Virus record (IMG/VR): IMGVR_UViG_2778261151_000009
Coordinates: 1 to 10,237 of that record
Origin: a virus
Lineage: Duplodnaviria > Heunggongvirae > Uroviricota > Caudoviricetes
Length of the DNA: 10,237 nt
Strand: one strand, 5' to 3'
Position 1 is the stretch's first letter. Each line of letters opens with the position of its first letter. A model generated the notes under the pieces. The model was not told the DNA's origin and made no database searches. It was given only the letters and a program-made list of their open reading frames with translations. Below, one piece after another: positions 1 to 10,237 of the stretch. Made by a program: the position numbers and the translations under genes.

Positions 1-296
1 CGCGTTGTTTCCGGTATATCGACTTTGATGTACGGGTTAATTTGTCTGGCGACAGTGGCAAGGTCTTTATTCAGGAGGGCTTTGCATTCTGCTTCGGTAT
101 ACGTTTTACCGAGCATGATGTCTTTTCCGGTGTGTCCGTGGCATACAGTCCATACGCCAACGATATCTTTGTATGGTATGTAGCTGACACCTTCCAGACC
201 ATCGTTACCACCTGGGCCAGTGATGAGCACAGACGCTATGGCAATAGCCCCACCACCAATAGCAACTGCAACAGCCTTGCGTAATGATGGCGACAT
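1..296 (-). CDS. R: SAR endolysin (phage 21 R-like lysozyme), N-terminal ~98 codons only; gene continues beyond window start
   Basis: Absent from ORF track because truncated by the window edge. Minus-strand ATG at 296-294 overlaps the holin stop (TAATG). Own translation: [98 protein letters not shown]. It has a Gly/Ala-rich weakly hydrophobic N-terminal helix (signal-anchor-release type) followed by a lysozyme-like E-x8-D-x5-T motif, and sits directly downstream of the holin. Confidence 0.85.
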
Positions 297-511
297 TATT
301 CACCTCTCGCAGCCTTACGCTTGTCTTCTCTGATTTTGAAGTACAGATTTGTCAGATAAGTCAGGAAGCCCAGAACCAGACTCCCCAGTACACCAATCGC
401 AGCCCACTGTGACGGACTGACCTGATCAAGCCACTGTAAAAACCAGTAGCCAGCACTGCCTGCGGAGGTGCCGTAGGCAATGCCCGTTGAAATTTTGTCC
501 ATGGATTTCAT
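296..511 (-). CDS. S: Class II holin / pinholin, phage 21 S-like (71 aa) with dual-start motif M1-K-S-M4
   Basis: ORF track 296..511. Protein [71 protein letters not shown] has two TM segments and a charged C-terminus. Strong SD (GGAGGTGAGG) upstream; stop overlaps endolysin start. Confidence 0.9.
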
Positions 512-803
512 AGCCTCACCTCCGCAAATAACGGATGGCGTAGTTTTACACTGAGAAATGAAAGGGATTTGAAAAGAAAAAACCGCAAAAGCGGGCGAAA
601 CGATATATACAGTAAGGAAAGCACTCTATCCAACAAACCACTCACAGTTAATCGGAATAAAAGCAGAGTGCTTATGAATGATCGCCTGCCCGAAGGTTAG
701 TATTTCTGCACAGCAATTTTGCAAAAAAAAGCGATCATTCATAACTTAAACGTCTTTCAGTCACTCCGGGATTTCCCATCATCGCAGACTGAAAGACTCT
801 AAC

Positions 804-878
<75 letters not shown>

Positions 879-881
879 ATA

Positions 882-957
<76 letters not shown>

Positions 958-959
958 AC

Positions 960-1036
960 TGGACCGCCACCGGGGACTCGAACCTCGCACACTCAACTTA
1001 AAGGGTTGACGCTCTTTCCTGATGAGCTAGTGGCGG
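960..1036 (-). tRNA. tRNA-like gene, Lys-type anticodon UUU but atypical anticodon loop (C at position 33)
   Basis: Reverse complement CCGCCACTAGCTCATCAGGAAAGAGCGTCAACCCTTTAAGTTGAGTGTGCGAGGTTCGAGTCCCCGGTGGCGGTCCA. Perfect 7-bp acceptor stem, 4-bp D stem, 5-bp anticodon stem (TCAAC/GTTGA), loop CCTTTAA, T-loop TTCGAGT, encoded CCA. Isotype uncertain. Confidence 0.55.
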
Positions 1037-1040
1037 TTGG

Positions 1041-1113
1041 TGGCCCTTGCTGGATTTGAACCAGCGACCTGGCGATTATGAGTCGCTCGCTCTCACCACT
1101 GAGCTAAAGGGCC
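1041..1113 (-). tRNA. tRNA with CAU anticodon; resembles tRNA-Ile2 (lysidine type) more than elongator tRNA-Met
   Basis: Reverse complement GGCCCTTTAGCTCAGTGGTGAGAGCGAGCGACTCATAATCGCCAGGTCGCTGGTTCAAATCCAGCAAGGGCCACCA; anticodon loop CUCAUAA. From memory the body resembles E. coli ileX-type tRNA. Confidence 0.75.
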
Positions 1114-1215
1114 GGGCGCAGGATAATAACGTTACGAAATCAATGTTGCAAGCATTCAAAAATCACCCTTATCTCCTCCACCAGCGCATTCACCATGTCT
1201 ATCCGAGATAAGTGG

Positions 1216-1244
1216 CACAAAAAACCCGCTTGTGGGCGGGTTTT
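1216..1244 (-). terminator. tR'-like intrinsic terminator downstream of the late promoter
   Basis: Hairpin ACCCGC-ttgtgg-GCGGGT (1224-1241) with A-run on plus side (U-run in minus-strand RNA) and T-run on the other side, so potentially bidirectional. About 45-70 nt downstream of the candidate pR'. Confidence 0.6.
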
Positions 1245-1289
1245 GTTTGCTTTTGCCATCACGTAAAAAATCGGCAAAATATCAGATTT

Positions 1290-1322
1290 GCATGAATATA
1301 TGCCTTTCAATCTACTTTTGCA
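1290..1322 (-). promoter_or_regulatory. Candidate late promoter pR' (-35 TTGCAA, ~16-17 bp spacer, -10 TATATT) overlapping the Q-like gene end
   Basis: Minus-strand reading ttgcaaaagtagattgaaaggcaTATATTcatg. Position between the Q-like gene and the terminator/tRNA/lysis block matches lambdoid late-region architecture. Confidence 0.45.
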
Positions 1323-1995
1323 ACACTTTGCTTTGAAAATGCCGTCTTTTTTTTGAACGTGTTCTCATTACAAACAATAAAGCCTCACTATCCAGTCGGT
1401 GAAAAATGTGTTTCATTGCAACCCAGTGACGAGTAAATGTTTTGGACCAGTTTTTAGTTGTCACTCCCGCCAGTAATGCCAGCTCCTGGTATTCATAACC
1501 TTCCCCACCAAAAAGTTCTGCTTTTACTGCCTGCGCCGCCAGCCAGATTAATTTTTTCAGGCGTTCCTGCGTTTTCCCTGCAATTTTTCTGGTACCGGAT
1601 TGAGCATTAAATTCATTCCACGCCCACTGTGTTATCGCGATCTGATATTCCCAACAAATACTCCCGCTGTAACACCACAACAACCAGGCTTTATGATGTT
1701 CTTCAAGAGACAGAACAGCCCGCCGCCACGATGATGTCGAAAACTCAACCGGACTGACCAGAGGAATTGACGTCCCCTTCGCCAGCGATTGCTTTCCCGG
1801 GATTGGTGGATTATCCCGCGTTATCATTTTTCCAGTCACTTCATCGCGGTACCGGATTTTTTTACGCCTGTAACGCCCTGTATCGAACATGGCATTCTCT
1901 TGCCAGGCTTCAAGCTGACCTTTTGTTGCCCCACTCAAATCAGCGGTGGCGATAATGAGCTGCTCACGCACAAACTGTAAATACTGGTTATTCAT
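1312..1995 (-). CDS. Putative late-gene antiterminator Q-like protein (227 aa from ATG at 1995; family assignment by position)
   Basis: ORF track 1312..2001 (its first codon is GTG). ATG at 1995-1993 overlaps the rusA stop as ATGA. Located immediately upstream of the pR'-like promoter, tR' hairpin, tRNAs and the S/R cassette, downstream of rusA. No motif verified by search. Confidence 0.55.
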   Translation of the reverse strand: MNNQYLQFVREQLIIATADLSGATKGQLEAWQENAMFDTGRYRRKKIRYRDEVTGKMITRDNPPIPGKQSLAKGTSIPLVSPVEFSTSSWRRAVLSLEEHHKAWLLWCYSGSICWEYQIAITQWAWNEFNAQSGTRKIAGKTQERLKKLIWLAAQAVKAELFGGEGYEYQELALLAGVTTKNWSKTFTRHWVAMKHIFHRLDSEALLFVMRTRSKKRRHFQSKVLQK

Positions 1996-2351
1996 GCGCA
2001 CCCCAGTTCTGTGATTTTTATCCCCAGCCGCCCACCAGGAACGAGCTGACCGCGCACAATATTGATTTCATCAAACTGCTCGTCGTCTATAAGTAGTCCA
2101 GCATGCGTCAGCGCATCCAGCGGTGCCTTCAGGATATTGTCCAGGTCACGACGGCGCTTATCCGGTGGCTCTGCAATAATCTTTATCGCCAGCCTTCCGG
2201 ACAGGTTTAATTTCAGTCGCTGCTGGCGAACAATTAGCGCCACATCACGGCGATAACGCTCACCGGCTTTTGATACAGTCGCCAGTAGGTGTTCACCGTT
2301 GGCGGGTAAGGCAAAACAAATTCTATGCGTTCGGTCATTTATGCTTTCCAC
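1992..2351 (-). CDS. rusA: Holliday-junction resolvase RusA; N-terminal region apparently frameshifted (possible pseudogene or sequencing error)
   Basis: ORF track protein contains PDKRRRDLDNILKAPLDALTHAGLLIDDEQ and GGRLGIKITELG, matching the RusA catalytic core. The canonical N-terminal motif (MTERIEFVLPYPPTVNTYWR) is in another frame, starting at ATG 2338-2336 right after the upstream stop. Confidence 0.8.
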   Translation of the reverse strand: MESINDRTHRICFALPANGEHLLATVSKAGERYRRDVALIVRQQRLKLNLSGRLAIKIIAEPPDKRRRDLDNILKAPLDALTHAGLLIDDEQFDEINIVRGQLVPGGRLGIKITELGCA

Positions 2352-3397
2352 TTCAGAACACCCGAATTTCTCGCGTGCATTAAAAAACGAATCAGCAACA
2401 ACAACTGACTACCGTGTTTTTCTTCAAAATCTTTTACCCCGGCGTGTAGTTCGTTATGGCATTTACGACACAGCGGAATAACAAACAAATCGTCAGCCTT
2501 TGTTCCCATCCCTCCCAGTCCATGACCAATGATGTGGTGCGGATCATCTGCCTGATTGCCACACGTCATGCATTTCTGCGTTTTTACCCAGCGCGTGTAT
2601 ACAGGCATCTCTTCCCGTTGTGGTTTCTGGCGCTGGAGATACTGAGCCGGAGATTCCGGATCAACGGCAATGCTGACCACCGTCTCTTCCTGTGGTGGAT
2701 TCTGTTGCTGGTGGGCGTGAGGCAGCGGCGCAAGATTTTTTGTGCGCTGCTTCAGTATGCTGGTGGCGGTCTGCTCTCCCGGCACGATGTCGCTTTCACG
2801 GTACATTGAGCGGATTTTTTCCGCACGCAACCCCAGCGAACGACGTAATACCGCTTCCGGTAGCGCGTCCGCCACCTGATTGCGGACCGCCCACCAGGAT
2901 AATTCAGCCAGAGATAATTCACGCTCCTGCGTACCGCTTATTGCGTGACCGATGACGTCAATCATCCATGCTGACAGGTTTTGATGAGCAAGTTGCTCGA
3001 GTGATTCGGATGTCTGGTCACGCAACTGGTTGTCGCAGTGCCAGCACAACACCATTGCGCCGGTACCATAACGGTGAATGACGGTTTCGCTGTGATGATA
3101 ATCGCCGTGTGGCCACTGGCAGGATTTAATATGGCGCAACAGCCAGTCAGACAATGCACCAGCACCACCAGCAGCACGAATCACCCGTGCGTTACTGAAA
3201 AACGGCAGCAATGTTTTGTCTTCCACTAGCGGCTGGCGAACGGCAGGAACGACCCCGGACGGCAGATTACGCATGCTTTTCGGTTCCGGCTCCACCAGTA
3301 CCCGGGTATTGTGGAATACCGGCATGGATTCACGGCCTGGCTTAAGGACCACCAGCCCGAGTTCCGGAACCAGAACAGGTCGAAGTAATACCCGCAC
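2339..3397 (-). CDS. DUF968 / YdfU-like prophage protein with C-terminal HNH-like zinc-binding motif
   Basis: ORF track 352 aa; first codon is GTG overlapping the upstream stop. C-terminus CMTCGNQADDPHHIIGHGLGGMGTKADDLFVIPLCRKCHNELH = CxxC...HH...CxxCH...H. Position between a Rem-like gene and rusA matches Qin-type prophages. Confidence 0.7.
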   Translation of the reverse strand: MRVLLRPVLVPELGLVVLKPGRESMPVFHNTRVLVEPEPKSMRNLPSGVVPAVRQPLVEDKTLLPFFSNARVIRAAGGAGALSDWLLRHIKSCQWPHGDYHHSETVIHRYGTGAMVLCWHCDNQLRDQTSESLEQLAHQNLSAWMIDVIGHAISGTQERELSLAELSWWAVRNQVADALPEAVLRRSLGLRAEKIRSMYRESDIVPGEQTATSILKQRTKNLAPLPHAHQQQNPPQEETVVSIAVDPESPAQYLQRQKPQREEMPVYTRWVKTQKCMTCGNQADDPHHIIGHGLGGMGTKADDLFVIPLCRKCHNELHAGVKDFEEKHGSQLLLLIRFLMHARNSGVLKWKA

Positions 3398-3398
3398 A

Positions 3399-3677
3399 TT
3401 ACCTCCAGATCCGTTGCTGGAACGTGCAGGACGGACGCGGTGGCCGTTCGGAATAAGGGAGCCTGACGAAGATTATCCAGTGACGATAATCGAGACTGAG
3501 GGCTTTCTTAATCTCGTATCCGTGTCTGCGGTAGCGCTGAATCAGCCATTCAGCCTGTTCTTCGGTGCAGGGGTCGTGCTGATACCAGTCAGATTTGAAT
3601 GCATGAGAACGCCGCCCGTGCCTGCTGGCAGGGGCGGCAGAGTTATCCGAATTGTAAAATTTGGTATCGTGCGCCAT
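3399..3677 (-). CDS. Small conserved prophage protein (Rem-like position), ~92 aa from internal ATG
   Basis: ORF track gives 3399..3806, but codons 1-43 are translated through the hok terminator hairpin and U-tract (3745-3776). ATG at 3677-3675 is the first start downstream of that terminator. Start and identity uncertain. Confidence 0.45.
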   Translation of the reverse strand: MAHDTKFYNSDNSAAPASRHGRRSHAFKSDWYQHDPCTEEQAEWLIQRYRRHGYEIKKALSLDYRHWIIFVRLPYSERPPRPSCTFQQRIWR

Positions 3678-3744
3678 CTGTTTTCTCTGCTGGCGCAGCA
3701 GGTGCCAGTTGTTCAGGCTGACGGATGGATTGTAAACCAGAACG

Positions 3745-3776
3745 ACCAGAAAAAACAAAACCCGCCGAAGCGGGTT
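3745..3776 (-). terminator. Intrinsic terminator ending the hok transcript
   Basis: 7-bp stem AACCCGC / GCGGGTT (3759-3776) with CGAA tetraloop, followed on the minus strand by UUUGUUUUUUCU. Not U-rich on the plus side, so unidirectional. Confidence 0.6.
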
Positions 3777-3844
3777 AAGTGCGGGTGCGTTGAGGATGCC
3801 TGACACATCAGCGGTGGCGAGGGATTTCTCCCCCGCCGGGTCTC

Positions 3845-4000
3845 TTACTCCTCAGGTTCGTAAGCTGTGAAGACAGCGACCTCCGTCTGGCCGGTTCGGA
3901 TTCGTACCTCGCAGAGGTCTTTCCTCGTTACCAGTGCCGTCACTATGACGGTTAAACAGATGACGATAAGGGCGATTAACATCGCCTTTTGCTGCTTCAT
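3845..4000 (-). CDS. hok: Hok/Gef family type I toxin (51 aa)
   Basis: MKQQKAMLIALIVICLTVIVTALVTRKDLCEVRIRTGQTEVAVFTAYEPEE is a single TM helix plus the conserved Hok periplasmic tail. ORF track extends it in frame to an upstream ATG at 4057. Flanked by promoter, terminator and 5'/3' complementary elements. Confidence 0.9.
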   Translation of the reverse strand: MKQQKAMLIALIVICLTVIVTALVTRKDLCEVRIRTGQTEVAVFTAYEPEE

Positions 4001-4176
4001 AGCCTGCTTCTCCTTGCCTTTCGGCACGTAAGAGGCTAACCTACATGTGTTCAGCATGGATTGAGCCTCAGATTAATGTTAAGCGTCTTGCAGGACGCGT
4101 AATGTTAACTGGGGCTTTTCTCTATCTGCCTTTTGGTGTTCATGCCTGAGACAGATAGCCTCAAGCACCCGCAGTC

Positions 4177-4204
4177 ATTCTACTTAACTAAGATTTCCCT
4201 GCAA
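4177..4204 (-). promoter_or_regulatory. Candidate hok promoter (-35 TTGCAG, 16-bp spacer, -10 TAGAAT)
   Basis: Minus-strand reading tTTGCAGggaaatcttagttaagTAGAATgactgcGGGTGC. Predicted start falls right at the 5' element (4158-4172) that is complementary to the 3' end of the transcript. Confidence 0.4.
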
Positions 4205-4259
4205 ACCGTTTTTGTCCGGCACAGTAAATATCCAACTAAACCAATAGCGTTCGCTGTAT

Positions 4260-4439
4260 TTACCGCCAGTATTCAATGCACATGACCGCCATGAACACCC
4301 CTAAAAAAAGGGCATTTATATGTCCAAACATTAATATCAAAACATCAATTTTTTCCATATACCTTGCTGTGAAGATGATGGGCATACATGATGCGAACAA
4401 CCAGAACGCAACAAACAAAAACTGCAATGCGTTTTTCAT
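4260..4439 (-). CDS. Small hydrophobic membrane protein, possibly a lipoprotein (59 aa from ATG with strong SD)
   Basis: ORF track 4260..4478; Met14 (ATG 4439-4437) is preceded by AGGGGGAATA. Protein MKNALQFLFVAFWLFASCMPIIFTARYMEKIDVLILMFGHINALFLGVFMAVMCIEYWR has a signal-like N-terminus ending in a lipobox-like FASC and a second hydrophobic helix. Lies in an AT-rich island. Confidence 0.5.
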   Translation of the reverse strand: MKNALQFLFVAFWLFASCMPIIFTARYMEKIDVLILMFGHINALFLGVFMAVMCIEYWR

Positions 4440-4651
4440 TATTCCCCCTACAATCAATGTGCAATAACATTTAAACACACCTCAATTTGGCCGGACATAT
4501 AAATATCTAAACCAGAAAAAATCACTTACATAGCGTTACAAACTCTTTAGTCTAAATACTCATCGTAAAACATTCCCCATACTTATCAGTCCGTTCCGCG
4601 CCAGGTAGCTTATTGCCTTATCTGGCAACCTATAATCAGGTTTCCGCTTTT

Positions 4652-5074
4652 TCAGTTGGCTGGTCGTTTAACCGACATAGTTAACCCATTAATCTGGTTG
4701 CCGGATGCTGGTGGATTTTCGCGTTTTAGTTGTTCATAAAAGTGCACAGCTTTAACCAGTTCTTCTGATGTAACCGGGACTGGTGGGGCAGTGAATAAGG
4801 CCTGAATTTCATAGTTCGGCCTGTCGTTACAATCCTCTTTTTTCGGTACATATTTCCAGTCACCAACCCACAACTCCCCCTGAGAGTCCATAACACCTTT
4901 TTTCACGTAGCGATATCGCCACGCTATCGGCTCTGCTTCCAGCGATGCCCGTGCAATTTTGAATAACTCGCCCTCTACTCGCGCCATCCCTGAATTGGGG
5001 TGGCATTTCGTAATCGCTATTTTTAATTTGGCTTCTTCGATTAATTGTTCTTTTGTTAATTCAGTCATTTTCAT
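4652..5074 (-). CDS. Hypothetical phage protein (140 aa)
   Basis: ORF track; ATG start with second Met at codon 3. Upstream has AGGAGG followed by a CCGCC-TGAAAG-GGCGG hairpin. No family recognised. Confidence 0.6.
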   Translation of the reverse strand: MKMTELTKEQLIEEAKLKIAITKCHPNSGMARVEGELFKIARASLEAEPIAWRYRYVKKGVMDSQGELWVGDWKYVPKKEDCNDRPNYEIQALFTAPPVPVTSEELVKAVHFYEQLKRENPPASGNQINGLTMSVKRPAN

Positions 5075-5164
5075 TACCGCCCTTTCAGGCGGCCTCCTGA
5101 TGTTCTGAGGGTGCAGAAATCCCTCCGGTTAAGGATTAAATTTTATTTGCTGTGCTAAATTTAA

Positions 5165-5620
5165 TTATTCAGTTTTTATTCCTGCTCTCAAAACAGCCTC
5201 TGCCATTCTGATATCCGGATTTTCTGAAATCATCTTTTCCGGCGAGTCGCAATCACCACCACATTCAGTTATGCGTTCATGACCAAAACGAATTGTGGTT
5301 TTGTGCGCATTAATCATTTGTGTAAGCGCATCTGTCAATTCTGCAATGCGTTTGTCTTTAACTTCCAGCTCTTTCAGTAAAGCCAGTACGTCAGGATCGC
5401 TAACATCAACGACGGTTACGCGCGATTTCAGGTAATGCTCATCCGCAAAAGTTCGACCAGTTTTAAAATATCCATCATCCCCCTCACCTGTGCAGGCATA
5501 CACAATATGCGTTCTGGAAAATATGCGCTGTATCGACATTTCATCGCCACAAACAGGACATTCCGGCACCTGAATTGGTGAATAACGTTCACGTAATGCC
5601 TGGTAATTAGTCTTGCACAC
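5165..5620 (-). CDS. Hypothetical protein with zinc-ribbon-like Cys motifs and a coiled-coil segment (151 aa)
   Basis: ORF track; GTG start preceded by TTTTCAGGAGA. CPVCG...C and ECGGDCD motifs; LKELEVKDKRIAELTDALTQM heptad-like stretch. Overlaps the upstream gene by 14 nt. Confidence 0.6.
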   Translation of the reverse strand: MCKTNYQALRERYSPIQVPECPVCGDEMSIQRIFSRTHIVYACTGEGDDGYFKTGRTFADEHYLKSRVTVVDVSDPDVLALLKELEVKDKRIAELTDALTQMINAHKTTIRFGHERITECGGDCDSPEKMISENPDIRMAEAVLRAGIKTE

Positions 5621-5912
5621 TGGCTGTCTCCTGAAAAATCACCGCATGCCCCAGTTTCTCCGCCAGCGCCAGTTCTGCCTTAGCGCCTGCTGACCGCTGC
5701 CAGCCTTTCAGCATGTAAATCGCATCCACACAACGAATCATCGCCATGCAGATATCCATGTACTGCGGCTGTGTCAGCCCGTCCGGAAGTACTGCCGGGT
5801 TTAAGACGGTATGCCCTTCCCGTTTCAGTTCCTCTTCCGCATTGTGAAACGCCTCACGGTTGAAATTTTTATACCCGGTCATTGGACCGGCGATATAGAC
5901 TCTCACCCTCAC
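5607..5912 (-). CDS. DUF4406-like protein (nucleoside 2-deoxyribosyltransferase-like fold family), 101 aa
   Basis: N-terminus RVYIAGPMTGYKNFNREAFHNAEEELKREGHTVLNPA matches the characteristic YIAGPMTG...NF...F...G..V.NP signature. GTG start overlaps the upstream stop (GTGA); SD AGGAGG 7 nt upstream. Confidence 0.7.
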   Translation of the reverse strand: MRVRVYIAGPMTGYKNFNREAFHNAEEELKREGHTVLNPAVLPDGLTQPQYMDICMAMIRCVDAIYMLKGWQRSAGAKAELALAEKLGHAVIFQETASVQD

Positions 5913-6331
5913 GCCATCACCTCCTGAAAATTACCCTGATAAAACGACAATATGCGCTGCATAACTTCGCTCTTCCGGCACTCGCGACAGATTATGTTTA
6001 GGCGACTGTCGTAGCGACGTATTTCTCCGTCAGGTAATGACCAGATAAGGTCCGGATCAACCGCAGATGGTTTCTTCAGCTTTGCCCTTGAGAGCTTTTT
6101 ACGAGCATTTTGCCAGTCCTTACGCGCCTGTTCAGACGGGAATAACCCGTAACCAGAGTTGTATACATCGCCACTGGCAACCAGCTCTCTGGCCAGAATG
6201 CTCATCAGATATCTTGTTGCCCCAGTTTTAGCTTCCAGTTGTCGTAACGTCTCGCGCCCACTCTGGCGTACGAGTTCAAGAACCTGCCCTTTAATTTTTT
6301 CCCGCTCTTCTTGTGTAAAAACTTTTGCCAC
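5909..6331 (-). CDS. Hypothetical protein (140 aa), possible winged-helix N-terminus
   Basis: ORF track; GTG start with SD AGGAGGG 4 nt upstream. No Walker A motif, so not an obvious DnaC-like loader. Confidence 0.6.
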   Translation of the reverse strand: MAKVFTQEEREKIKGQVLELVRQSGRETLRQLEAKTGATRYLMSILARELVASGDVYNSGYGLFPSEQARKDWQNARKKLSRAKLKKPSAVDPDLIWSLPDGEIRRYDSRLNIICRECRKSEVMQRILSFYQGNFQEVMA

Positions 6332-6371
6332 AAGCCCTCCTGAAAATTACCTCATGACCAGAAATTAACAC

Positions 6372-7442
6372 TTACCCCCTGAAGCCCGGCGGAATTTCGT
6401 TATCCGGTTCAGAAATATGATTCACACAACGCTGGTTGTTCGTGCCGCTTACCGGGAGCAACCAGGGGTTCTCAAAATTCCGGTCCGGTCCAAAAAACGT
6501 CGTCGCTCGCTGAACAAATTCCGTTCCCGTTTTCCCGGTAGCCGCCAGGTATCTTGCGTAACGCCTCACGCCATCCAGCATGGCCTCTGGTGGCACCCCC
6601 TCGCGTAATCTGGCCTTCCAGGCACTGAAAGCGGATTTCTTCGGGTTTGCCCCGGCACGCAACGGGTACTCCCGCCAGACCTGTTCGAACACATCCGGAT
6701 AATCCACTCGTCCCACAGACTGCCCGGTGTTTTCCGGGACTACCCGATCGGCTTCCCGCTGAATGGCGGAATCGGCTTCAGGCTGCTGCAGTTGGTGTGA
6801 TTGCTCCGGACTTGCGGTCATCACCTGCTGCACAGCGCCCGAATCGGCTTTCAGCGCATACGCTGAATCGGCTTCCGGTGTCGTGCCTGCTGGCTGACCA
6901 GGATTGACGGTCTGAACATCCCCTGCCTGGTTCGTGGCGTTTTTTACGCCATGGACCATAGTGTTTTGATCTTCTTGATCTGTATCTTTATCTGTATCTT
7001 TATCTGTCGTGACTCGTCGTGACATGTGCGTGACATATCGTGACGCGCCGTGACAATCGCCATTTTGTTCCCGCTTTCTTTCCCTCTCTCGCTGCGCCCT
7101 CTTGCGCTCTGCAGGAGATTTTGCGGTTTGCGAAATATTGCCGTTGTCCTCTTTCAGCACCTGGCGTTTTTCCCATCCAGTGATTAAATCACCATCAAGT
7201 ACCCGCCCCTGCATCGTCTGCAAAATTGAATCAATTACCTCTTCTGTCACGTCGAGCGCACTTGCCAAATCTTCTGTCGTGACATCAATGTGACCTCGCG
7301 TGACATTTCGTGACGCGCTCACCAGGAGGTGGATATACACTGCCATCACTGTTGCAATTGGCTGCCCTGACACCCTGGCAATTGTTCGCCACTTAGGGTC
7401 ATTTGGCATGTCATGCCATAATCTGAGCCAGGCGTTAGCCAT
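6372..7442 (-). CDS. Putative replication initiator (O-like: N-terminal HTH, low-complexity linker, C-terminal domain) with iteron clusters inside the coding sequence
   Basis: ORF track 6372..7448 (GTG); ATG at 7442-7440 has SD AAGAGGTGA. Position after Cro-like and YdaT-like genes. Acidic repeat linker TTDKDTDKDTDQEDQ; basic stretch KRAQRERERKRE. Two clusters of CGTGAC direct repeats at helical-turn spacing inside the gene. Confidence 0.65.
   Translation of the reverse strand: MANAWLRLWHDMPNDPKWRTIARVSGQPIATVMAVYIHLLVSASRNVTRGHIDVTTEDLASALDVTEEVIDSILQTMQGRVLDGDLITGWEKRQVLKEDNGNISQTAKSPAERKRAQRERERKREQNGDCHGASRYVTHMSRRVTTDKDTDKDTDQEDQNTMVHGVKNATNQAGDVQTVNPGQPAGTTPEADSAYALKADSGAVQQVMTASPEQSHQLQQPEADSAIQREADRVVPENTGQSVGRVDYPDVFEQVWREYPLRAGANPKKSAFSAWKARLREGVPPEAMLDGVRRYARYLAATGKTGTEFVQRATTFFGPDRNFENPWLLPVSGTNNQRCVNHISEPDNEIPPGFRG
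7008..7054. repeat. Iteron-like cluster 1: five direct CGTGAC repeats at 10-11 bp spacing
   Basis: Copies start at 7008, 7018, 7029, 7039 and 7049, immediately preceded by a tandem 12-bp repeat ATCTGTATCTTT x2.5 (6978-7013). Confidence 0.6.
7246..7314. repeat. Iteron-like cluster 2: CGTGAC at 7278, 7299, 7309, variant TGTGAC at 7289, inverted copy GTCACG at 7246
   Basis: Same hexamer and 10-11 bp phasing as cluster 1, about 225 bp away, within the N-terminal coding part of the initiator gene. Confidence 0.55.
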
Positions 7443-7513
7443 ACTCACCTCTTTTGATACCGAATCTTTTTACTCACAAATTGCCGGAAGTGATCCGGTA
7501 TGAATATTGCGAG

Positions 7514-7939
7514 TCAATGCACAGCCACAATATTTCCTGCAGGGCCACCACGATTCATCTGGTTGAAACCAGCGATCGCCACTGCGACAAAATCATCAGC
7601 GTCTCTCACCAGTCGTTCCCGCGTCTCCACTAGTTCCCGAAAATAGGCTGAGCTATGGCTGCGCATTCGGGCCACCAGCAGAGGTGGCATTGCTTTTTCG
7701 ATAGCTGGTAACAACGCCTGAATTTTTTTAAGCGCATCAGGGGGGTCTTTCTCCACCCAGCGGAAAATTTTCTGAGTATTGCGAGCCAGGGCTTCCGGAT
7801 GGCTGTCGTCATACAGTTCCGGGAACGTCATTCCCAGCTCGAAATACGCTTTGGTAATTTTCGCAGCCGGTACTTTTTCGCCGTCCGGATGCGCCCAGGC
7901 ATTCATCGCCATGCGGATGTGTTCATGCTTGATTTTCAT
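7514..7939 (-). CDS. YdaT-like protein (position equivalent to CII in lambdoid early operons), 141 aa
   Basis: ORF track; ATG overlaps Cro-like stop as ATGA. Sits immediately downstream of the Cro-like gene. Family name from memory of Rac/CP-933P YdaT, not verified. Confidence 0.5.
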   Translation of the reverse strand: MKIKHEHIRMAMNAWAHPDGEKVPAAKITKAYFELGMTFPELYDDSHPEALARNTQKIFRWVEKDPPDALKKIQALLPAIEKAMPPLLVARMRSHSSAYFRELVETRERLVRDADDFVAVAIAGFNQMNRGGPAGNIVAVH

Positions 7940-8190
7940 GAATCAACTCCCATCAGCTTTTTCGTAGTAGTTTTATTCCTGCCAATAGTTAAAATTGCAT
8001 CGGCAGAAAATAATCCGTTTGATGCAAGAGCGATTTTTTCAGCGTAATTTGTTTCGCCGGTATATTCTGTGCGAGGCAATTTTCCGTTATCCATCCATTT
8101 ATAGATTGCTCTTTGGCTGACACCACAAACGTCGGCCACAACAGCAACGCGAACAGTTTTGATTACATCTTCAAGTGTTTTCTGGTTCAT
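7936..8190 (-). CDS. Cro-like HTH DNA-binding protein (84 aa from ATG 8190)
   Basis: ORF track 7936..8262, but the ATG at 8190-8188 has SD GAGGGTG 6 nt upstream. HTH signature VVADVCGVSQRAIYKWMDNGKLP. Divergent from the repressor gene. Confidence 0.7.
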   Translation of the reverse strand: MNQKTLEDVIKTVRVAVVADVCGVSQRAIYKWMDNGKLPRTEYTGETNYAEKIALASNGLFSADAILTIGRNKTTTKKLMGVDS

Positions 8191-8269
8191 ATCACCCTCA
8201 CAATGTGAACTTTGAGTACATGCTATAACAGAACTGACAGTACATTCAAGAGCGAATATCATTGAACTT
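8191..8269. promoter_or_regulatory. Divergent promoter/operator region between the Cro-like and repressor genes
   Basis: Repressor-side promoter: -35 CTGACA (8234-8239), 17-bp spacer, -10 TATCAT (8257-8262). Cro-side: -35 TTGAAT (plus 8244-8249), -10 TATAGC (plus 8222-8227). Two AACnnnnAGTACAT motifs at 8208-8221 and 8232-8245. Confidence 0.55.
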
Positions 8270-8689
8270 ATGGTTCATGAAGATAAAGCGCGTAAAGAGT
8301 TCGCCAGTAGGCTTGCGCTAGCCTGTGAAAACGCTGGTTATGAACAACATGGAAGGCAGGCAGAAATTGCCCGTCGAATGAAATTAACACCAAAAGCGGT
8401 TAGCAAATGGTTTAATGGCGAAACAATTCCTCGCCGGGAGAAATTAAGGGAATTAGCAACACTAATAGGAACAACACCAACCTATCTTTTGGGAGAGGAT
8501 ACAGAAGAAAGTGGACAGGTACGTTTCTATCAGGAGTTAAATCCAAGACAAAAAATCATCATTGACCTTCTGGACGAGCTCCCTGACAGTGAGACAGATG
8601 AACTTTTAAAAACTCTTGAAGAGAAAAAACAGAAGTACAATGCAATTTACGAAGAGTTAGCACGAAAGAAAAAACAAAAAGCCTCTTAA
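8270..8689 (+). CDS. CI/DicA-like XRE-family repressor lacking a peptidase domain (139 aa)
   Basis: ORF track; HTH GRQAEIARRMKLTPKAVSKWFNGETIP; C-terminal acidic/coiled segment. Divergent from Cro-like gene. No SD, with -10 placed about 7 nt before the ATG, suggesting a leaderless mRNA. Confidence 0.8.
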   Translation: MVHEDKARKEFASRLALACENAGYEQHGRQAEIARRMKLTPKAVSKWFNGETIPRREKLRELATLIGTTPTYLLGEDTEESGQVRFYQELNPRQKIIIDLLDELPDSETDELLKTLEEKKQKYNAIYEELARKKKQKAS

Positions 8690-8759
8690 ACCAGCATAAA
8701 TCCGGTAGCGCCTTCCTCCGGGTTTGTGCTTCACTTTATCCCATCTCATTTTTTTACAC

Positions 8760-8810
8760 ACAAAATGTACTATAAGTACTTTACAACAATGAACGCAAAG
8801 TACATTATAT
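8760..8810 (+). promoter_or_regulatory. Operator/promoter region upstream of the ydfA-like operon
   Basis: Near-palindrome ATGTACT-ATA-AGTACTT (8764-8780) and AACgcaaAGTACAT (8791-8804) overlap a candidate promoter (-35 TTTACA 8779-8784, -10 CATTAT about 8802-8807). Confidence 0.45.
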
Positions 8811-8986
8811 ACCTGCCACCCACCCCGCCCCACAGAATGCAGGGCAATACTTCGAGTTACCAGGCAGTGGTCAGGGGTTAAGTAGCCAGCCCGAGGCGTA
8901 AGAACATGACGGCAGGGTTCAACTTTAATAACTATGCAGCAGGTTTTTGTTCCGCTACCCCGGCGTTAAGGGGAAATGAGGTCAGC

Positions 8987-9142
8987 ATGGATACTATCGA
9001 TCTTGGCAACAACGAATCTCTGGTGTACGGCGTGTTTCCCAACCAGGACGGCACCTTCACCGCAATGACGTATACCAAAAGCAAAACGTTTAAAACCGAA
9101 TCTGGAGCGCGTCGCTGGCTGGAAAGAAATTCAGGTGGGTGA
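8987..9142 (+). CDS. ydfA: YdfA-like small protein (51 aa)
   Basis: Internal ATG of ORF track 8906..9142 with SD GAGGT 4 nt upstream. Protein MDTIDLGNNESLVYGVFPNQDGTFTAMTYTKSKTFKTESGARRWLERNSGG. Size and position after the DicA-like repressor match Qin ydfA (from memory). Confidence 0.6.
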   Translation: MDTIDLGNNESLVYGVFPNQDGTFTAMTYTKSKTFKTESGARRWLERNSGG

Positions 9143-9143
9143 T

Positions 9144-9272
9144 ATGGATTTCGACACAATCATGGAAAAGGCTTACGAAGAATACTTCGAAGGCCTTGCC
9201 GAAGGCGAAGAAGCTCTCAGCTTCAGCGAATTTAAACAGGCGCTTTCCAGTTCGGCAAAATCTAACGGCTGA
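9144..9272 (+). CDS. ydfB: YdfB-like small protein (42 aa)
   Basis: Not in ORF track (too short). ATG 9144 with SD AGGTGGG; own translation MDFDTIMEKAYEEYFEGLAEGEEALSFSEFKQALSSSAKSNG. Start 1 nt after the ydfA-like stop. Confidence 0.6.
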   Translation: MDFDTIMEKAYEEYFEGLAEGEEALSFSEFKQALSSSAKSNG

Positions 9273-9300
9273 TAAGCGAAACAGCACGCGAGGAATCAGT

Positions 9301-9411
9301 ATGCAGAAACGAGAACCCGTCATCATCGCGCCAGACTATACCGATGATGAACTTTATGAGTGGATTTTGGCGGCATCAGTTTCATTGCTGGCTGATGTCC
9401 GCCCTTTTTAA
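9301..9411 (+). CDS. YdfC-like short ORF (36 aa), uncertain; its 3' end is the DicF-like hairpin
   Basis: ATG 9301 with SD GAGGAA; own translation MQKREPVIIAPDYTDDELYEWILAASVSLLADVRPF. The coding sequence runs through the terminator hairpin, so it may be truncated or partly non-coding. Confidence 0.35.
   Translation: MQKREPVIIAPDYTDDELYEWILAASVSLLADVRPF
9357..9409 (+). ncRNA. dicF: DicF-like sRNA (processed 3' end of the ydfABC transcript) with intrinsic terminator
   Basis: GGCGGCATCAG...CTGATGTCCGCC hairpin (9369-9403) followed by TTTTT. Sequence and position after ydfC resemble E. coli DicF (from memory); 5' end not determinable here. Confidence 0.55.
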
Positions 9412-9591
9412 AGTGAATTTTGTGATGCGGTGAATGCGGCTCAGCGCACGCGGAACAGTTAAAACAGTAAGGAAAATCCCTTATTCCGGCGTTAATTATT
9501 AACTGGTTAACGTCACCTGGAGGCACCAGGCACCGCATCAACAAAGTTCACTTCGGTGATGAAAGGTAAGAGAAAATGTTGAATGTAGCTA

Positions 9592-9703
9592 TTGAAAACC
9601 AGAACGGGTGGAATTATAGTGCACCTGCACCTCATAAAACGGGTGCCGGGCGTGGAAACCCGAAATCATTCACGGCGCATAACCGCGCTCAGGCGGTTTT
9701 TTT
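9592..9703 (+). promoter_or_regulatory. Promoter-terminator unit: -35 TTGAAA (9592-9597), 17 bp, -10 TATAGT (9615-9620); terminator hairpin ACCGC-gctcag-GCGGT plus T7 (9682-9703)
   Basis: Near-consensus sigma70 elements followed about 60-75 nt later by a stem-loop and seven T. Could be a small RNA or an attenuating leader for the Rha-family gene. Confidence 0.4.
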
Positions 9704-9872
9704 ATGCGTTAAGCACAGCCACATTCGCATTATGGTGGGGCGTGCAGGGCAACCGCAAGGCTGGCCGGGTTCCGTGATGACCGGTATTTCCACCCCTGTA
9801 CGTCTCACCACCCTTATGGTCGTGGAAAACCTCGGTGGTGAGTTAATCAAATTCATCGCGGAGGCTGCCATC

Positions 9873-10237
9873 ATGGCTACTATCCTTACCCTTTCTCACC
9901 CTGACGTAACCATCGAAAATGGTCGCGCTGTCACTACGTCTGTTGCGATCGCCGAGTTCTTTGGCAAACGCCACGAACGAGTGTTGGATAAAATTCGCAA
10001 TCTGGACTGTTCAGCAAAATTCACTGAGCACAATTTTGTGTCGAGCGAATACACCGACTCAACCGGGCGCAAACTCCCAATGTACCAAATCACCAAAAAC
10101 GGCTTCGTTTTCCTGGTGATGGGCTTCACGGGCAAAAAAGCCGCCGCATTCAAAGAGGCATACATTGCTGAGTTCGACCGCATGGAGGCCGAACTGCGCC
10201 AGAATAACACCCCACCTGCTGACAAGATGATTCCGGG
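9873..10237 (+). CDS. rha: Rha-family phage regulatory protein, N-terminal part; gene continues beyond window end
   Basis: Absent from ORF track (no stop in window). ATG 9873 with SD GGAGG 8 nt upstream. Own translation MATILTLSHPDVTIENGRAVTTSVAIAEFFGKRHERVLDKIRNLDCSAKFTEHNFVSSEYTDSTGRKLPMYQITKNGFVFLVMGFTGKKAAAFKEAYIAEFDRMEAELRQ matches the pRha domain signature. Confidence 0.75.
   Translation, partial: MATILTLSHPDVTIENGRAVTTSVAIAEFFGKRHERVLDKIRNLDCSAKFTEHNFVSSEYTDSTGRKLPMYQITKNGFVFLVMGFTGKKAAAFKEAYIAEFDRMEAELRQNNTPPADKMIP

Follow-up and report, generated by a model that had tools for sequence, protein, structure and literature searches.

A probable P4-type RNA immunity cassette inside the open frame that leads into a Rha-family antirepressor gene of a lambdoid prophage

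In satellite phage P4 the RNAs CI and seqA lie inside eta, described as a 'Bro-network' gene, and the Rfam models C4 and isrK find relatives of these RNAs (PMC10111431). The same paper summarises the eta/kil mechanism, in which the frame starts upstream of the internal promoter; according to the part of Forti 1999 that is relayed there, eta is translated and nonsense mutations in it cause termination. IsrK and C4 have been equated with P4 seqA and CI and noted in lambdoid Salmonella prophages (PMC3632133). For Gifsy-1, Hershko-Shalev et al. 2016 (PMC4825925) described the promoter of isrK-orf45-anrP, read-through, trans-activation by IsrK and the processed RNA STnc1160; a stable Hfq-associated IsrK of about 77 nucleotides (nt) was shown for this prophage, and translation of orf45 was needed for anrP expression. 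The IsrK-C4 pair, the Gifsy-1 locus and the location of CI and seqA inside eta are already known, and the basic mechanism has been published. Here we analyzed a 10,237-nt stretch of viral DNA (IMG/VR record IMGVR_UViG_2778261151_000009, positions 1 to 10,237; referred to as the window), in which an open frame from ATG 9576 runs into rha, a gene for a Rha-family antirepressor-type regulator. We consider it likely that rha is governed by an RNA immunity cassette of P4 type, with 9576-9872 as its control region. The identity of the cassette and the control of rha by C4 are almost certain; for a further step, in which translation overrides this control, we regard the balance as even.

Rfam models isrK and C4 both matched this region in a scan that covered the whole window (gathering scores: isrK, 50 bits; C4, 45 bits; DicF, 48 bits; sok, 59 bits). 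The cassette has the following features, with sites named according to the convention of the P1 record (a1, b1, a′, b′, a2 and b2).

9592-9620, plus strand: PisrK, a sigma-70-type promoter-like site from a consensus scan, with the -35 hexamer TTGAAA at 9592-9597, a 17-nt spacer and the -10 hexamer TATAGT at 9615-9620.
9627-9703, plus strand: small RNA IsrK (Rfam RF01394, 67.7 bits, full model, 1-77 of 77).
9627-9646, plus strand: IsrK hairpin 1.
9647-9662, plus strand: IsrK hairpin 2.
9652-9658, plus strand: site a1, GUGGAAA, in the loop of IsrK hairpin 2.
9666-9675, plus strand: site b1, UCAUUCACGG, in IsrK between hairpin 2 and the terminator.
9681-9703, plus strand: terminator, a GC-rich hairpin of 6 base pairs (bp) with stem AACCGC/GCGGTT (9681-9698) and loop GCTCAG, and a run of seven T (9697-9703).
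9728-9815, plus strand: C4/CI-type antisense RNA (Rfam RF01695, 76.3 bits, full model, 1-87 of 87).
9769-9780, plus strand: site b′, GUUCCGUGAUGA, the 12-nt loop of the second C4 hairpin.
9787-9793, plus strand: site a′, UUUCCAC, a single-stranded segment of C4.
9822-9828, plus strand: target a2, GUGGAAA, with 7-bp complementarity to a′ and of a type identical to a1.
9853-9864, plus strand: target b2, UCAUCGCGGAGG, complementary to loop b′ and holding the rha Shine-Dalgarno sequence GGAGG (9860-9864).

The initial annotation, made from the letters of the window, had predicted a small RNA of about 75 nt at 9627-9703, with a near-consensus promoter before it and a hairpin followed by seven T at its end. 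The isrK match has exactly these coordinates and both flanking elements are present. The promoter-like site agrees with the consensus at 10 of 12 positions and ends 6 nt before 9627, with a predicted start near G9627. Taken alone, promoter-like and terminator-like sites are not above chance in this sequence, their numbers being 3 and 4 against 2.7 and 2.8 expected from shuffled sequence. They are more than chance here because the ends of the isrK match coincide with them, the promoter position is conserved and the hairpins co-vary. In all 39 diverged relatives that made up the covariation alignment (pairwise identity of 93% or less), promoter-like hexamers end 6-10 nt 5′ of the IsrK start, and these hexamers fall into at least seven sequence classes. 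By analogy with Gifsy-1 (PMC4825925) PisrK is presumably active; it is the counterpart of P4 PLE and P1 P51b, and the IsrK region is the counterpart of P4 seqA and of the a1b1 region of P1. A weak match of the Rfam model for the a1 and b1 targets of C4 overlaps IsrK, and the middle of IsrK is complementary to the RNA downstream, a1 pairing with 9787-9793 (7 bp) and b1 with 9769-9780 (9 bp, bulged).

C4-type RNAs of P1, P7 and P4 are cut from a longer precursor by RNase P. The C4 RNA of the window, which corresponds to STnc1160 in Salmonella, consists of a 17-bp closing stem around two hairpins, and its minimum free energy fold is the fold of the family model (z = -2.86). Target b2 pairs with loop b′ over 10-11 contiguous pairs. 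An attenuator for rha had also been suggested initially, together with a well-placed start codon. The start stands, with GGAGG 8 nt before ATG 9873. The leader does appear to be regulatory, but the main regulator is C4 at 9728-9815, which had been missed and whose loop pairs with the rha Shine-Dalgarno sequence.

The alignment of the 39 relatives tests these structures against a control in which pairing partners were shifted ("slid") and against a covariation null of 500 shuffles. The combined structure is paired in 92.9% of cells, compared with 38-45% when slid; 31 of its 62 pairs have changed on both sides, and none of the shuffles reaches the observed covariation score. Hairpin 1 of IsrK is 99.5% paired, with compensatory changes in 6 of 6 pairs. 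In C4 the closing stem is 100% paired and has five compensatory pairs, while hairpin 1 is compensatory at all five of its pairs. The same holds between molecules: pairing of a1 with a′ is kept at 98.9%, six of the seven pairs having changed on both sides, and b′-b2 shows change on both sides in 9 of 12 pairs.

The sites vary strongly from locus to locus. Loops occur in 31 and a′ segments in 15 distinct versions among 40 sequences. In 30-35 of the 40 no other target surpasses the cognate one, and the mean energy of the duplex between loop and target is -14.6 kcal/mol for cognate pairs versus -7.8 kcal/mol for non-cognate ones. Each loop fits its own targets better than those of other loci, and therefore the family has many specificity types. 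So many loop variants point to a set of mutually blind immunity types, which may bear on cross-talk between co-resident prophages.

The cassette lies within a reading frame, for which three further features are needed.

9576-10237, plus strand: long open frame, in which an Ash/Eta-like extension (9576-9872) continues in frame as rha; it is still open at the window end.
9732-9734, plus strand: AUG within AUUAUGG in the 5′ strand of C4; it corresponds to the start codon of Gifsy-1 orf45 and is in frame with rha, with no stop between.
9873-10237, plus strand: nested rha, Rha-family antirepressor-type regulator (Pfam PF09669, Phage_pRha), cut by the window end.

Translation confirmed the earlier observation that the frame from ATG 9576 runs without a stop, for at least 220 codons, into rha. 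It follows an in-frame TAA (9567-9569), located 6 nt before the ATG (9576-9578) and ending no open reading frame (ORF), and is stop-free through 10235 (220 codons). ATG 9873 shares this frame 99 codons further on, and its context is AUCAUGGCU, not AUGA. Phage_pRha matches amino acids (aa) 120-204 of the long frame, which are aa 21-105 when counted from ATG 9873 (E 7.1e-31). The extension is matched by Pfam PF10554, Phage_ASH (aa 14-109, nt 9615-9902; model positions 1-105 of 107; E 1.2e-16; 61.5 bits, cut-off 26), and the matched bases coincide with IsrK, C4 and the target sites. RefSeq annotation of close relatives (L001-L003) has Rha proteins of 284 aa that begin at the counterpart of ATG 9576; in Stx2a_1447, UTI89 and ST64B an 'antirepressor' of 383-385 aa starts further upstream and overlaps the end of a cII/ymfL-like gene. 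An N-terminally extended Rha, the third suggestion of the initial annotation, is supported by these calls, by the homology of the frame to P4 eta and by the position of rha, which is that of kil.

The protein annotations could be taken at face value. Region 9576-9872 would then encode the folded Ash domain of an ordinary two-domain Rha of 284 aa, and the promoter and terminator would be chance matches. The strength of the Phage_ASH match, the RefSeq coding calls and the unremarkable counts of promoter-like and terminator-like sites are all consistent with this, and at least one recent study of Shiga-toxin (Stx) phages treated Ash as a protein domain of unknown function (PMC8951638). However, two Rfam models match the same bases above cut-off, compensatory change is extensive both in the helices and in the three-way intermolecular sites, and the homologues from Salmonella and P4 were shown experimentally to be RNAs. 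Codon-position diversity argues in the same direction. In 89 unique Rha-type relatives it is flat over 9633-9872 (0.286, 0.299 and 0.284; ratio 0.97), unlike the adjoining rha, where the third position is in excess (0.346, 0.291 and 0.494; third-position ratio 1.55). The flat profile means that the extension peptide is not under detectable protein-level selection. Coding conservation over 9576-9872, a check proposed with the initial annotation, was therefore negative for coding constraint and favours the RNA reading. We regard the two-domain explanation as most improbable and already largely refuted.

The absence of stops indicates that the frame is nevertheless kept translatable. In the same 89 relatives this frame has no stop, against 17 and 22 distinct stop positions for the other two, 39 altogether. 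With equal chances for each frame this gives (2/3)^39 = 1.4e-7, a rough value, as the sites are not fully independent; weighting the frames by how many single-step routes lead to a stop (20, 35 and 24) gives about 1e-5 by our own, also rough, estimate. Upstream of 9732 (-99 to -1) there are no stops in this frame versus 18 distinct stop positions in the others. Insertions and deletions keep to multiples of three: 37 of the 39 representatives have an upstream distance of 93, 96, 99 or 105 nt, and the distance from the C4 AUG to the rha ATG, 141 nt in the window, is 138 or 141 nt in every one of the 25 representatives of Rha type. The frame is stop-free upstream of the C4 AUG in 36 of 39 representatives and downstream of it in 34 of 39, compared with 1-16 of 39 for the other two frames. 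Judged by stops and indels, the 9576 frame appears to be maintained by selection. In the extension it is openness that is conserved, and the amino-acid sequence is not detectably selected. Together, the comparisons support a reading in which small RNA, attenuator and extended Rha would apply at once rather than as alternatives.

On this basis, and by analogy with P1, P4 and Gifsy-1, the cassette would most likely work as follows. Transcription from the internal promoter at 9592-9620 would start near 9627, and IsrK would form first, ending at the hairpin and U7. Read-through RNA would contain C4, whose a′ and b′ are complementary both to a1/b1 in IsrK and to a2/b2 downstream. In a lysogen the internal promoter would make mostly IsrK, and C4 cut from read-through transcripts would mask the rha ribosome site; transcription would probably terminate after the C4 block, leaving the antirepressor silent. 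Abundant IsrK, which carries a copy of the target, would compete for C4 and so raise translation of rha. The open frame and the example of P4 eta/kil suggest a different course for transcripts that come from the upstream operon. Ribosomes starting at ATG 9576 would cross the promoter, IsrK, C4 and the targets into rha, and their transit would melt the terminator and the C4 target sites, allow escape from RNA immunity and yield a long Ash-Rha isoform.

Such transcripts require an upstream source, and two elements located before the cassette bear on this.

8780-8808, plus strand: candidate upstream operon promoter, TTTACA-17-CATTAT, between the gene at 8270-8689 and the ydfA/ydfC-like genes.
9355-9408, plus strand: DicF-like RNA and terminator (Rfam DicF, 43.3 bits, below the cut-off), with a terminator-like site at 9372-9399 followed by a T-run.

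The window belongs to a lambdoid (Rac/Qin-like) Escherichia coli prophage, and the cassette sits in its leftward dicB-type (PL-like) operon. On the plus strand, a repressor-like gene (8270-8689) and the ydfA/ydfC-like genes precede the DicF-like RNA and its terminator, which are followed by the cassette and rha; beyond rha, relatives carry dicB, ydfD and an exonuclease gene. Transcripts from the candidate site at 8780-8808 would run into the cassette and thereby bring in ribosomes that start at 9576. A full DicF match is present at the same place in relative L002. The DicF-like RNA of the window lies inside a mechanically called ORF, 9139-9411, about 170 nt upstream of ATG 9576. A duplicated 5′ fragment of dicB upstream of the cassette, of the sort that the annotation of L002 and L132 contains, would have hinted at insertion; tblastn and blastn found none in the window.

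A number of observations weigh against this reading, most of them against its translation step. The DicF-like terminator stands between the candidate upstream promoter and the cassette and may limit the upstream transcription that reaches it. The ribosome site at 9576 is weak (UAAGAG, 3 nt from the ATG). In 48 loci taken from species-representative genomes the frame is stop-free in 31 upstream and in 26 downstream of the C4 AUG, with 9-15 of 48 for the other frames; P1 and Yersinia phage L009 lack the open frame. The frame is thus missing in relatives that keep the RNAs, and therefore the RNA cassette works without it. In Gifsy-1 the frame ends at the start of the antirepressor gene (orf45, 45 codons, AUGA overlap with anrP) and acts by coupling. 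The sign of IsrK action here is uncertain, the P4 literature making this RNA necessary for immunity and the Gifsy-1 work making it an activator. Finally, we infer rather than observe promoter activity, termination, C4 processing and the use of ATG 9576.

Several of these points would equally suit a cassette made of RNA only, in which IsrK and C4 are real and the 9576 frame is never translated, having stayed open through ancestry and through RNA constraints that exclude stops. This explanation fits the lack of a codon-position signal in 9633-9872 and the weak ribosome site, as well as the stops found in the frame, with the RNAs retained, in about a third to half of the species-level relatives and in P1. 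It also draws on the near-identity of a1/b1 and a2/b2, which lie 171 nt apart in one phase and whose freedom from stops is thus correlated. Yet it has to account for 39 distinct stop positions in the other two frames with none here, for indels in multiples of three and for the homologous eta of P4, whose translation, and termination through nonsense mutations, are reported (Forti 1999, as relayed in PMC10111431). We consider it unlikely that RNA function alone explains the open frame.

A further conserved pairing, which involves the C4 closing stem, bears on where translation would begin.

9804-9812 with 9834-9842, plus strand: alternative helix in which the closing stem of C4 contributes its 3′ strand (9804-9812) and pairs with GGUGGUGAG (9834-9842), a candidate structural switch.

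In the 39 relatives this helix is paired in 94% of cells, versus 34-37% when slid, and includes compensatory changes from C-G to U-A and from U-A to C-G. In unprocessed RNA it would be a competitor of the C4 closing stem; this helix and the mature C4 fold would be mutually exclusive, and they may match the two conformers described for Gifsy-1. A local helix that would cover the Shine-Dalgarno sequence (CCUC 9830-9833 with GAGG 9861-9864, from a 254-nt fold) is paired in 72% of cells, without clean covariation.

A switch of this kind fits an arrangement of Gifsy-1 type, in which translation would start at AUG 9732 once IsrK opens the structure and would produce Rha with 47 additional residues, leaving no role for ATG 9576 and for the frame over IsrK. 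AUG 9732 indeed occupies the position of the orf45 start within an invariant AUUAUGG, and in 25 of 25 Rha-type representatives it is in frame with the downstream ATG. On the other hand, the frame is free of stops upstream of 9732 as well, both in the count of stop positions (0 versus 18) and in 36 of 39 representatives, the P4 frame reportedly begins before the internal promoter, and AUG 9732 is within the 17-bp closing stem and has no evident Shine-Dalgarno sequence. Such a start therefore seems to us improbable as the only one. The layout of Gifsy-1 itself, with a 45-codon frame and an AUGA overlap, was not found in the window, where the frame from AUG 9732 is stop-free and fused to rha. Among the 39 representatives this layout occurs once (L124, 45 codons, ATGA overlap).

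Returning to the P4-type cassette with translational override, we tentatively extend it to the Ash domain in general. In many enterobacterial prophages an 'Ash domain' precedes Rha/Ant-type antirepressors; rather than a protein domain, it may be the read-through translation of an IsrK-C4 cassette, whose frame is kept stop-free without amino-acid constraint and lets ribosomes of the early operon override immunity; we place the chance of this somewhat below even. If it is true, the eta/kil mechanism of P4 would generalise to lambdoid prophages, and Gifsy-1 orf45 would be a truncated remnant of the same frame.

The analysis clarifies more than it discovers. It adds the nested-gene layout of P4, with rha replacing kil, in a large group of loci from E. 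coli, Shigella and Salmonella; the base-for-base coincidence of the 'Ash domain' with the RNA cassette, in an open frame without amino-acid constraint; and the status of the orf45 layout of Gifsy-1 as a minority form. The protein labels used in RefSeq and Pfam ('Rha family', 'Ash domain') hide two RNA genes and an internal promoter. Antirepressors decide on the waking of prophages, and their control matters for Shiga-toxin and Salmonella prophages.

The tandem of IsrK followed by C4 was found in all of the first ten relatives, at a spacing of about 25 nt, and in satellite phage P4. These ten comprise E. coli prophages, Stx phages, Salmonella ST64B, phiP27, a Yersinia phage and a P2-like phage. 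Pattern scans located more than 120 further tandem copies in viral contigs and 50 in species-representative genomes, mainly of Enterobacterales. In the latter (L133-L182) the C4 core pattern occurs in Brenneria, Pectobacterium, Dickeya, Sodalis, Edwardsiella, Citrobacter and Klebsiella. One C4-core match each was also seen in records labelled Ralstonia, Pseudomonas lundensis, Vagococcus and a Chitinophagaceae metagenome-assembled genome, which could reflect transfer or contamination. The open frame as a universal feature of the family was rejected after the species-level scan and the P1 check.

Two variations on the layout were noted in relatives. In a P2-like phage of the Peduoviridae and its relatives (L010, 1446-2063) the ATG that follows the C4 target does not share the Ash frame, standing 140 nt from the C4 AUG, and it starts a 76-aa protein that matches phrog_3688 end to end; in this subgroup the Ash frame stays open for about 100 codons further, overlapping the 76-aa gene, and this part has no family match. 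In other IMG/VR contigs (L019, 4676-5391; L020; L027, 9739-11107; L071; L075) two or three units of IsrK, C4 and a small Rha-like gene are arranged in tandem about 656 nt apart. Each unit has a different pair of specificity sites, and the whole looks like an array of independently gated antirepressor-type genes.

The remaining features of the window are located mainly on the other strand.

Minus strand: genes for a Cro-like regulator, a CII/YdaT-like gene, a replisome organiser, hokD/sok, DUF968, RusA, Q and four tRNAs.
3845-4170, minus strand: hok/sok type I toxin-antitoxin locus, with an Rfam sok match of 118.9 bits (cut-off 59) at 3995-4170.
3845-4057, minus strand: 70-aa hok-like ORF adjoining sok; a related RefSeq record annotates hokD.
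1312-2001, minus strand: Q antiterminator gene.
804-1113, minus strand: four tandem tRNA genes, Gly-tcc, Thr-tgt, Lys-ttt and a tRNA with a CAT anticodon.

The tRNA with the CAT anticodon is called Met by ARAGORN and Ile in RefSeq. The tRNA cluster is just downstream of Q, the usual position of phage tRNA clusters. Sub-threshold isrK/isrJ matches (20.9-27.2 bits) at 1219-1292 and 3755-3836, both on the minus strand, may be due to chance; the former lies between Q and the tRNAs, where a short leader transcript of the late promoter would be expected. An ORF of 61 aa opposite the cassette (9689-9874, minus strand) has no PHROG family and was not considered a gene.

Compared with described systems, the locus departs from the protein family Phage_ASH (PF10554) in that the matched bases vary without a codon-position pattern; the 'domain' therefore looks like a translated RNA cassette more than a protein fold kept by selection. 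It shares with the isrK-orf45-anrP-isrJ locus of Gifsy-1 a separate promoter and terminator for IsrK, read-through into an antirepressor gene, an IsrK middle complementary to a C4-like RNA (STnc1160 in Gifsy-1) and an AUG at about +106 in AUUAUGG. Here Q is 7.6 kb from the cassette and on the opposite strand.

The immI region of P1 and P7 (P51a/P51b, a1 b1, c4, a2 b2, icd, ant1/ant2) is alike in its RF01695 RNA, in the order of the sites and in having an antirepressor as output. The P1 record annotates a1, b1, c4, a2, b2 and a ribosome site in this order, b2 being located where ribosomes bind the first gene under control, and P1 has one constitutive promoter and, as its upstream promoter, a repressor-controlled one. 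It differs from the window by stops in all three frames across c4, which leave no long frame, and by a first controlled gene, icd, that is coupled to ant instead of being the antirepressor gene; its antirepressor is of the Ant family, not Rha.

The closest resemblance is to P4, although P4 is a satellite and the host element here is a lambdoid prophage operon. The nested gene codes for the 65-aa Kil in P4 and for a Rha-domain regulator here, the spacer between IsrK and C4 is about 107 nt in P4 and 24 nt here, and the window gives no clear sign of the upstream promoter or of translational coupling to a preceding gene. In both cases the two RNAs are matched by the same Rfam models in the same order, those of P4 lying inside eta (ORF 8168-8812, minus strand). 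The frame begins before the internal promoter, extends across the two RNAs and enters the nested gene in frame, and the ribosome site of the nested gene is the downstream target. P4 Eta and the frame of the window are collinear in BLASTP (E 2e-18) and both belong to Pfam Phage_ASH, and their alignment through EAAIMAT(I/T)LT(L/P)SHP puts the ATG of rha level with the start of kil, which is nested in P4 eta.

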